Positions 3,306 through 6,300 of a DNA stretch of 64,000 bases are shown here, one piece after another; the stretch's first letter is position 1; each line of letters starts with the position of its first letter. A program made the translations under genes and the position numbers. The stretch is taken from assembly GCA_035221665.1 (NCBI GenBank), contig CM069165.1:22940001-23004000 (forward strand). Direction: 5' to 3'. The DNA is from Okamejei kenojei (lineage: Eukaryota). The notes under the pieces were generated by a model. The model made no database searches and was not told where the DNA came from. It worked only from the letters and a program-made list of their open reading frames with translations.

Positions 3306-6300
3306 CTACAGAAAGAGAAAGGGCAGATTTAATCCTGGAACAGCCAGATCACCACTCATTAGTGGAACTCTGGAAGCTTCCGATTGGTCAGGATATGTGA
3401 AAATGGAGAAGGGCAAGTACTGCAAATGGGGCTGCGTTCCAATTCAATGTCCTTTCACTTTTCAAAAATTTGGAGATGTTTTACCTCGAAGTGAGGTTAG
3501 GAGGAATGGATGACTACACTGATTAACTGCTAGCATACACTGGAACCCAATGGTTCTGTCAGCATATTTTGCATTTCATCAATGTTTTGAATAATTCAGC
3601 CTTTTTCCTCAGTCGTCATCTCTTCACCTGGTTCACGTCATTGGGATGCCAGCTTCCAAACATGCCTGGTCTGAACCAGATGCAGCAGCTTCGCTGCAAA
3701 GAGGAGCTGCCACAGCTCTCGCTTACCTTTTGCTTATTCTGTAATGAGCTGTCTCCAGCACTCCAGTTATTGGGTTAGAAATGGTGGCTCGTCTCAGCTG
3801 TGGAGCCAACCAATCAGAAAGAAAACACAGATTATTACCAGTTTGACTGGATGTAAAACAGGACCAATCAGAATCCTTCCAGTGGGGAAAGAATTAAGCC
3901 CATCACCCTGGAACGATCATAGAAACATAGAAAATAGATGCAGTAGGCCATTCGGCCCTTTGAGCCTGCACCGCCATTCAATATGATCATGGCTGATCAT
4001 CCAACTCAGTATCTTGTACCTGCCTACTATCCATACCCCCGATCCCTCTAGCCACAAGGGCCACATCTAACTCCCTCTTAATTATAGCCAATGAACTGAC
4101 CTCATTCTTGGGTCCCTGCTGCAGCTAACAGCAACAATCACATCTCGGTAAAGCTGAAATTCATGGAAAGCCCCTTTGAAACAGGTTAACTATTTCACAA
4201 TTCTTTTCAAACATTAATAACAACCAGGGGATGAATTTTGCAGTTTTACCTTTAGTTTTCACTGAATCAACGACAACAAAAATGTCTGTGGTAAACAATG
4301 ACAAGAAGTGCTGGTTCACTGAGGGACAACAGCAATACAAAACAAGTAGTAAAGATGACCTTTGAATACAATGTAATTTCATTTTATCATTAAGTAATTT
4401 TAAAATTGAATGTGTTAGCAATTTGTGCCGCTTTGTTGCGATAATTCCATTTCATAATTTTAATCCAGCTCTGCTGATTTAGTGCATATCAACATTTGTA
4501 GTCCCTCAATCATCAATCTCATTTGGGAAGTCAGAGGGTCGGAGTATTTTAACTGAATGTGCTGCATGGAGACAAATGGAACCAATAGCTTTCACAGATC
4601 CTGTATTTTCTTTATTACTTTAGTTATTTTTCAGGATCTGGCATCATTGACAAGGCCTTCATTTATTAACTGCCCTGAAATTGCTCGTAAGATGTGCTGA
4701 TTCACCTTTTTTGAACAGCAGTCAGGTAGTTAGTACTCCTTCGGTTACACAAGCTTCAAAACACACCTTCGCAAAATTAGAAGTCTTCCTGCAGCACCTC
4801 AATCAAAATCCAATACTGAAGGTGTGGGCTGACATTCGTTGACCATTAATGAGATGAATTTTAGATGGGCTGGAAAATAACGACTCAATTGTTTTTCTGT
4901 GATTGAGCCCAAAACAAAAATCTAAAAAAAATGAGTACTTTCTTCTTTCTAGATTGTCTCAGTTACAGAACACTGATATAGAAGGCTGTCCAGAGATCTG
5001 TATCCAGATCTTGAGCTAGAGTTACTACTATGCATTGTATCCTCATGGCTGCTCGCAACCAACCTAATATTATACTCTCAGATTTTGTTTAGTTCAGAGA
5101 CACAGCAAGGAAACCGCCGATCATCAATCACCTGTTTACACTAGTTCTATGTTTTCCTATATTCGCATCCACTTCCTACCTTACAAACCCACATTTCTTA
5201 ACGATATGGGTGAAAAATCCCCTAAACTTTAACCACTTCCTACAAGAACCACAGAAATGCAAAGATTAAGGGCTGGTTCCAATGAATGAAATCGGACCAG
5301 TTTTGCTGAAGGACAATATTTCTCTGGATTATAACTGCCGTCTCCCCAAATGAGCCAGAAAACTAAGACACTGGACCACCCTGGCTGATGTGACATCTTA
5401 CCCGTGGCTTTGCTAATTCTTTCACACGCTCAATTTCCTGGTCGGAAATGATATCAATGAAACGAATGATGCGAGGTTTGTCCCATTCATCTTGCTGTTT
5501 CACAGGCCTCAGAATGTATGCTGGATTTCTGCTCGCGTCCGAATAACGGCAGAAGAGCCTTTTCTGTCGTCGAGGAGTCTGCACAGAAATATAAAATGTT
5601 GATTCATGTCAAATTAGAACACACATGTCAAAACAATTCAAAATTATATGATTTAACTTGGGGCAGACTCTGACTGAGTGTTTGTGCCAGCAGCCTGTTT
5701 AAATAAATGATGGTAAACTAGTGAATGAAAGATGACAGACCTAATTTTGTGAGTAAAAATGCTATTTTGAAGTACATAGAAATAATCTGGATGTAGATTT
5801 AAGTTTAAGATTCCCAAAGCAACTGAATTAACAATGCCATGCACAGAGACCATCAGGAGGGGGGCATGGGAAGGGGGGAGAGAAAGTGATTGTACTTTCA
5901 GCAAGGACATAATAAGTTTTAGTGAGTCTGTATTAGTTTAATAATTGCTTATATACAAGTTCAAATATTGATTATATAGAATATGGACATTACCAGCAAG
6001 TAGTGCCAGTGAAGCTTTATCAACTTCAAAATGGTGGCGATGAGCCACTTTCCTGAACTGCTGCCACCATTCTTGGAATCAAAACACCTACATGGCCCTT
6101 TAGTAGGAAGGTACTGGATTTAGAAAATGCAACAAAGGTGACTGCCAACCAAGCAACAAGAAGAATTTTTTCATTAGCAGGAAAATCAGTAATAGAAGGA
6201 CCTAAATTAATGAAAGCTACTTGGAGAATAGAAGGGTGATTAGGGTAACTTATTTGCTTCATCTTGGAATCTAAAAAAGGGCTGGAAGCAGATTCTATTA

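Follow-up and report, generated by a model that had tools for sequence, protein, structure and literature searches.

In human ATE1, competition among the elements R1–R5 around the mutually exclusive exons 7a and 7b has been proven by compensatory mutation, and an outer helix spans 30 kb (PMC7797038). In Dscam1 exon 6, under the bidirectional srp model, the exon chosen has a box just before it that binds another box far upstream, so that the intervening exon is looped out (PMC6071210; PMC10790352), and in the duplication model of Ivanov and Pervouchine (2018) one box has several similar partners around a tandemly duplicated exon, with paralogues that keep the box and differ in the partner retained (PMC6071210). 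Few vertebrate exon pairs have a recorded RNA-structure mechanism; the vertebrate examples in a 2023 review include DNM1, TCF3, CD55, and ATE1 (PMC10790352). Here, we describe a candidate element of this kind in the P4HA1 gene of Okamejei kenojei, on the minus strand of a 64,000-nt stretch of its genome (GCA_035221665.1, contig CM069165.1, positions 22,940,001 to 23,004,000; hereafter the window). One box (L1) lies upstream of exon A, the first of two mutually exclusive exons, and its complement (R) lies in the intron between exons A and B (Table 1). We put at about one half the probability that L1 and R pair in the nascent RNA as a one-way loop-out of exon A, favouring exon B.

P4HA1 is the main collagen prolyl 4-hydroxylase. 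An initial annotation, made from the letters of the window alone, had named this gene and the exon pair, and both identifications hold: exon A shares 20 of 23 residues with the human P4HA1 peptide, and the order of A and B is presumably the same in human, whose P4HA1 we take to lie on a minus strand. The peptides and the 71-nt length of the human alternative pair match exons A and B (supplements of PMC5740500 and PMC8373072); the human exons are named 9a/9b, also 9/10 or 10a/10b (PMC11868403; PMC5224494; PMC5740500; PMC8373072), and the pair has been dated to Bilateria (PMC8373072). In hg38 the coordinates of the human exons are chr10:73,043,887–73,045,051. The published control of the orthologous human pair involves U2AF, as well as ATF3/TET1/CTCF and a polymerase pause, and RNA pairing is not invoked in the text on U2AF or CTCF in these two articles (PMC5224494; PMC11868403). 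Hypoxia shifts the ratio of 9a to 9b, and this ratio influences how breast cancer cells invade (PMC11868403).

By analogy, the P4HA1 element would work most like ATE1, with which it would have in common a vertebrate cassette of two exons, a central intronic element with two possible partners, an enclosing helix, and a dependence on elongation rate (PMC7797038). Unlike in ATE1, the second partner in P4HA1 is a predicted local hairpin that competes for part of R, and the outer helices span less than 800 nt. With Dscam1 the element would share the loop-out step, whereas P4HA1 lacks exon-specific selectors that compete for one docker and a conserved pairing that loops out exon B. The Dscam orientation also reverses the labels of the initial annotation, which had called R the docker: the upstream box is docker-like and the box before exon B is selector-like. 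In the duplication model it is the downstream arm that is duplicated for an upstream docker, whereas in P4HA1 the upstream arm is repeated, a history reconstructed from two sequences. Of the traits of docker/selector systems, the locus has tandem homologous exons used singly and a central box with several partners (L1, −28.1 kcal/mol; L2, −17.9 kcal/mol; and the local partner M), and lacks alternative long-range pairings tied to opposite exon choices; one trait of a loop-out system, a stable helix between unique intronic segments beyond chance, is present.

We found no report of RNA pairing at P4HA1, including from RNA in situ conformation sequencing (RIC-seq), in a literature search that stopped short of the full catalogues of pairs of conserved complementary regions (PCCRs) and the supplement of PMC5224494. 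P4HA1 and P4HA2 are absent from five supplementary files of PMC8052449, which may not hold the full catalogue, and P4HA is not mentioned in the main text of PMC5740500, PMC10790352, or PMC7797038. The likely loop-out helix would extend an established type of splicing control to a gene without such a report in this search. With its defined arms and a length below 800 nt, the cassette is also well suited to minigenes.

The L1–R Helix

The L1–R helix (H2) consists of 12 bp (one G-U) and 7 Watson–Crick bp separated by a 2 × 1 loop, 19 bp in total, with an energy of −28.1 kcal/mol; the arms flank exon A, which would be looped out. This is the geometry given in the initial annotation, and the four pairings it listed are all found in the sequence, including a weak low-complexity one (H1, −12.2 kcal/mol). 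Chance was modelled as the best helix with at most one small loop in dinucleotide-shuffled sequence. Between the last 300 nt of the upstream intron and the 421-nt middle intron, −28.1 kcal/mol was reached by 7 of 500 shuffles, which places the main helix above chance. When the comparison was restricted to the blocks still alignable in the most divergent relative, which were picked from the conservation data, 2 of 1000 shuffles were as good. A null model without any limit on loops had produced scores that were unbounded, with 47 of 60 shuffles ahead of the real sequence, and was replaced by the one-loop model.

Among real tiles of equal geometry from the window and eight other stretches (702 made, eight dropped by an overlap or N filter), 20 of 694 reached −28.1 kcal/mol, and about 14 of these, the strongest, resemble inverted repeat copies by eye. 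The blocks containing L1 and R each gave a single match in a genome search, which indicates that L1 and R do not form an inverted repeat. A helix of this strength is uncommon, being reached in one to three of every hundred comparable regions, and has others like it. Of the noted pairings, the main helix alone was tested against chance on its own merits; the other three fall short of the average for the best helix in shuffled pairs of introns (−17.5 to −19.5 kcal/mol). A search of the region against Rfam returned two chance-level matches, both under the gathering score.

Conservation and Exon Use

Cartilaginous-fish relatives were compared in six sequencing runs out of 24 listed, without the RNA-guessed runs of organism A. 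Organisms B, D, and G gave cover of both R and L1, and organism E of R; organism C had almost no cover from 2916 to 3887, with none on the arms, and organism F covered neither arm. No change was listed within R (nearest changes at 3366 and 3391) or within L1 (nearest at 3857, 3858, and 3883) in any covering organism. Variable sites number 12 in 169 intron bases (3306–3391 and 3800–3882) and none in the 41 arm bases (P = 0.031), on difference lists that leave out about 30 letters near piece ends, so that 8 of 14 differences are unlisted in a piece of organism E, 6 of 12 and 2 of 6 in two pieces of G, and 3 of 20 in a piece of D; the last two bases of R in organism E fall within such an end zone. 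The initial annotation had proposed to look for conservation and covariation across vertebrates; in the relatives covered, the arms are unchanged, and no compensatory change is seen. Organism G is divergent: the end of exon 8 differs at 6 of 30 letters, 3423–3607 is unalignable, and the repeat at 3916–4102 is missing, its contig departing from the window at 3913 and continuing with sequence like that from 4103 onward. The conserved L1–R element is probably real.

In all three RNA-guessed runs (organisms E, F, and G), exon A is spliced to both neighbours and exon B is left out. Use of the exon B donor is seen in one organism G contig, in which this donor is joined to the next exon and the A–B intron is retained. 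With both exons at 71 nt, inclusion of both or of neither shifts the frame.

Exon A itself has no differences over 72 letters in organisms E and G, while the closing 30 letters of exon 8 differ at 4 and 6 positions, respectively. Synonymous sites are thus under strong constraint, which suggests exonic splicing signals.

Predicted Competition for the Central Box

In the folding ensemble of the full region, the L1 partner takes 0.89 of R. If L1 is masked or left out, R goes to M, a local partner of its 3′ half that was overlooked in the initial annotation, while L2, L3, and a site after exon B each take 0.02 or less. The R–M hairpin has an energy of −22.6 kcal/mol (z-score −2.8; 3 of 200 shuffles, in a window chosen after the fact). 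M competes solely with the 7-bp half of the long helix, the 12-bp half being compatible with the hairpin. The motif UUAAAU at about −26 to −21 is the likely exon B branch point, based on its spacing from the AG and on what is presumably the corresponding value, 26, in the human row of a table in PMC5224494. The organism D changes in the small hairpin at 3352–3365 are all in loops.

L2 pairs with R over 11 bp at 3809–3819 (−14.9 kcal/mol), or over 15 bp when extended (−17.9 kcal/mol), with an ensemble share of 0.03 or less. It is kept in organism G (−17.2 kcal/mol) despite a 4-nt deletion, because the deletion falls in a tandem repeat, and its TTCTGAT part is present at equal distance in the P4HA2 paralogue. 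As L1 and L2 are both upstream of exon A, either pairing would hide exon A.

Two further predicted helices enclose both exons. The outer one, H0, which was also overlooked in the initial annotation, has an energy of −23.4 kcal/mol (22 of 500 shuffles) and a pair probability of 0.98; an 8-nt insertion in its 3′ arm would cost the outermost pairs alone. The weak helix H1 varies in run length on both arms. The 5′ arms of H0, H1, and the main helix lie on one continuous 50-nt strand, and their summed energy was matched by 1 of 1500 shuffles, with blocks defined post hoc. In folding, adding the intron that follows exon B tips the balance to the long-range state, via H1 and H0. Between the middle and downstream introns there is no significant helix (best −21.3 kcal/mol, matched by 46 of 461 shuffles).

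Just past the exon A donor, 3625–3718 folds into stacked local hairpins (z-score −1.4); the stretch 3640–3726 is weakened in organism G, from −30.4 to −19.2.

P4HA2 Paralogue

A P4HA2-like gene (contig C11; L006 4418–4488 and 4662–4732), likewise overlooked in the initial annotation, has A- and B-type exons arranged as in P4HA1; its A-type exon is intact, with AG/GT ends and its frame open. Across the two genes, A and A are identical at 46 of 71 nt and B and B at 49, compared with 36–43 for A against B; the exon pair is therefore older than the P4HA1/P4HA2 duplication, in keeping with its dating to Bilateria (PMC8373072). A box GACCAATC lies at −86 from exon B in the P4HA2 A–B intron, vs. −84 in P4HA1; its first 8 nt are identical to R, and 11 of 13 letters are common to both. 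This box pairs over 13–15 bp with a partner in the same intron (−18.2 kcal/mol, 9 of 1000 shuffles), and nothing above chance was found for a partner upstream of exon A (71 of 200 shuffles). About 106 of the 173 bases of this intron are in one stem, and no exon is looped out. Compared by eye, the helices of the two genes show one two-sided change (G-C vs. A-U) and two one-sided changes, with the partner elsewhere in the paralogue. The paralogue offers a rare view of the rewiring of such pairings after duplication.

A broader reading, which we regard as doubtful, is that the GACCAAUC box predates the duplication and was kept in both cartilaginous-fish genes with different partners. A co-transcriptional switch in P4HA1 would then turn on this box, with a local hairpin shielding exon B as one state and a three-helix scaffold hiding exon A as the other. 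Taken with the unrelated invertebrate helices of like layout, RNA pairing would have controlled P4HA exon choice across animals while its sequence turned over. If so, the GACCAAUC partner would be long-range in P4HA1, looping out exon A, and local in P4HA2, folding the A–B intron.

A separate hairpin precedes P4HA2 exon A (z-score −2.1), and a bony-fish-like P4HA2 locus (L015) has the B type alone after exon 8. The human P4HA2 event listed in PMC8373072 concerns a different exon, and a paralogous conserved element of P4HA1 and P4HA2 in PMC3595034 was set aside, being listed downstream of the genes and not at the present site.

Other Lineages

A pattern scan of metagenome contigs yielded 71 loci, of which six have vertebrate-type exons (L015, L020, L039 and L040 on one contig, L042, and L044) and are bony-fish-like by sequence reading. 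In L040, an 8-bp look-alike of the pairing lay outside the six best helices and was not counted; L044 and L020 resemble each other in no more than a short repeat and were kept apart as separate introns. In the invertebrate loci L028 and L066, the exon is present in three tandem versions (71, 77, and 71–74 nt, at about 2490–3520 when oriented by exon). In both, a conserved box of 22–25 nt before exon 2 is complementary to another conserved one preceding exon 3, giving a helix of 20–25 bp (−26.0 and −32.9 kcal/mol; 3 of 300 and 0 of 246 shuffles), looping out exon 2 and covering the exon 3 acceptor region, and a weaker conserved partner lies before exon 2. The loop-out layout is as in P4HA1, and the sequence is unrelated.

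Proposed Mechanism and Alternatives

In the predicted model, the 3′ half of R toggles between L1 and the local hairpin, and two outer helices lock the long-range state. We infer that exon choice is kinetic. Exon A is transcribed about 340 nt ahead of R, such that early commitment or a polymerase pause would lead to use of exon A, with R staying in the local hairpin and B being skipped; with late commitment, R would pair with L1, exon A would be hidden, the hairpin before B would open, and B would be used. H0 and H1, which need the intron after exon B, would then lock the long-range state, and nonsense-mediated decay would clear transcripts whose frame is shifted by containing both exons or lacking both. 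Such a system would be a one-way loop-out with a local competitor, rather than one in which exon-specific selectors compete for a docker. Exon 9a is included more often in human cells when the polymerase makes a CTCF-linked pause in intron 9a (PMC11868403), which agrees in direction with the kinetic model, although the human gene may lack the present helix.

Several observations weigh against the loop-out of exon A by L1 and R. Among the orthologues there is no compensatory change, the arms being invariant, and the flanking intron is likewise well conserved. The contigs of the three RNA-guessed runs contain no join of exon 8 to exon B, and as the mature contigs carry exon A, the helix cannot dominate in those runs. 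The R–M hairpin loses one outer pair in organism G (−19.5 kcal/mol). Long-range occupancy swings from 0.01 to 0.94 depending on the ends of the folded stretch, which shows no more than a near-equal energy of the two states. The match of the paralogue box is modest (34, 138, 15, and 114 of 1000 shuffles for word lengths of 8, 11, 13, and 15) and was not flagged by unconstrained local alignment. L040, which alone among the 71 metagenome loci has the two vertebrate-type exons together, lacks homologues of R and L1, and its best helix between upstream and middle introns (−23.2 kcal/mol) was matched by 15 of 100 shuffles; the partial loci L044, L042, and L020 have no central box. The value of the element would be limited if it is confined to cartilaginous fishes, as L040 suggests.

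The boxes could instead be conserved as binding motifs (branch-point-like CUGAU, splicing-factor sites, or the CCAAT of NF-Y), with complementarity as a by-product, exon choice made by splice-site strength, U2AF, and pausing, and exclusivity by nonsense-mediated decay. We consider this somewhat unlikely, though a serious possibility. R, L1, and L2 all fit RRCCAATSR, the NF-Y consensus, two on the plus strand and one on the minus strand, which alone yields about 9 bp of complementarity; the window holds 12 matches (11.95 expected), and three of these are the boxes. L1 and L2 contain a branch-point-like word, the 71-nt exons permit decay-based exclusivity, and the human pair is regulated by U2AF (PMC5224494) and by CTCF and RNA polymerase II (PMC11868403). 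The absence of covariation and of a homologue in L040 points the same way, as does the frequency of such helices, about 1–3% of comparable regions in a genome that has many. Binding motifs leave unexplained, however, the in-register perfect helix of 7 bp, which is no part of the CCAAT core, as well as the extension shared with the paralogue, the changes that stop at the helix edges, and the nested outer helices. NF-Y sites are usually set in CpG-rich promoters, and the GC content here (43–48%) gives no sign of one.

It is improbable, in our estimate, that the helix forms and is selected for another job, namely compacting the cassette, guarding against A–B joining, or repressing exon B. Such a role would fit the presence of exon A in the mature contigs of all three RNA-guessed runs despite a very stable helix, the enclosure of both exons by H0 and H1, and the homologous box of the paralogue, which sits in an intron stem without looping out an exon. 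However, loop-outs usually reduce inclusion of the enclosed exon (PMC10790352), and the overlap of L2 with the acceptor region of exon A likewise speaks for repression of A. The Dscam-like switch of the initial annotation, with one docker and three selectors, in which pairing at 3651–3660 would select A and upstream pairing B, is very improbable. Its three partners are indeed all complementary to R, and L1 and L2 are conserved, but these two give the same outcome. L3, the partner that would free exon A, pairs with R at −12.5 kcal/mol within the range first given, its tenth pair requiring base 3369; three adjacent changes in organism G weaken the duplex from −15.2 to −8.3 kcal/mol. L3 is also buried in a local stem (3682–3625) and takes 2% or less of every ensemble, even with the main partner blocked. 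A fourth candidate partner after exon B (2984–2996, −13.9 kcal/mol), which would loop out exon B, has an ensemble share of 0.0.

Features of the Locus and Neighbouring Sequence

Table 1. Features around the P4HA1 exon pair, in window positions.
Feature	Position	Strand	Remarks
Upstream constitutive exon (human exon 8 equivalent), 177 nt	5402–5578	−	Open 59-aa frame
High-copy repeat adjoining the conserved block, no part of the element	3916–4102		DNA-run depth up to millions
H0, 5′ arm of outer helix	3897–3912	−	Pairs with 3135–3151; encloses both exons
H1, 5′ arm of weak helix (low-complexity)	3884–3896	−	Insertions in organisms B and G
L1, upstream arm of main helix	3862–3882	−	−85 to −65 from exon A acceptor
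L2, second copy of the UCUGAUUGGU motif, in exon A acceptor region	3806–3820	−	Weaker partner of R
Exon A (human 9a type), 71 nt	3727–3797	−	AG/GT ends; 23-residue peptide
L3, third partner in the initial annotation	3651–3660	−	Rejected as conserved element
R, central box (docker of the initial annotation)	3370–3389	−	−84 to −65 from exon B acceptor
Small 5-bp hairpin with CUAAU branch-point-like motif	3352–3365	−	Pair probability 0.87–0.98 in all constructs containing it
M, local partner of the R 3′ half	3332–3348	−	Hairpin ends next to likely exon B branch point
Exon B (human 9b type), 71 nt	3235–3305	−	AG/GT ends; 23-residue peptide
H1, 3′ arm	3178–3190	−	Deletion in organisms D and F; substitution in D
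H0, 3′ arm	3135–3151	−	Outer end has an 8-nt insertion in B, D, and (as a loose end) F
RRCCAATSR match	3381–3389	−	
RRCCAATSR match	3808–3816	+	
RRCCAATSR match	3862–3870	+	

The minus strand of the window carries the collagen prolyl 4-hydroxylase alpha gene. Its upstream constitutive exon matches the human P4HA2 structure 7ZSC (E = 7.6e-22), and contigs of organisms E, F, and G connect this exon to exon A, as loose ends. The next constitutive exon lies beyond the window edge, in a downstream stretch of the same gene (L004). That stretch also contains a second tandem pair on the minus strand (2962–2909 and 2861–2808), of 54-nt exons that encode ...YEPHFDFGR and ...YEPHHDFAR around an H-x-D motif, which we take to be iron-binding; the second exon has a GC donor. 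The intron between them is 47 nt, which suggests steric exclusivity.

On the plus strand of the window, 62338–62472 is an exon of a NADH pyrophosphatase (NUDT12/13-like), and its position near 62,300 presumably fits human synteny, in which we take NUDT13 to neighbour P4HA1. Decayed reading frames at about 37000–38700 on the plus strand, from a six-frame listing, are retrotransposon pol-like, judging by their motifs.

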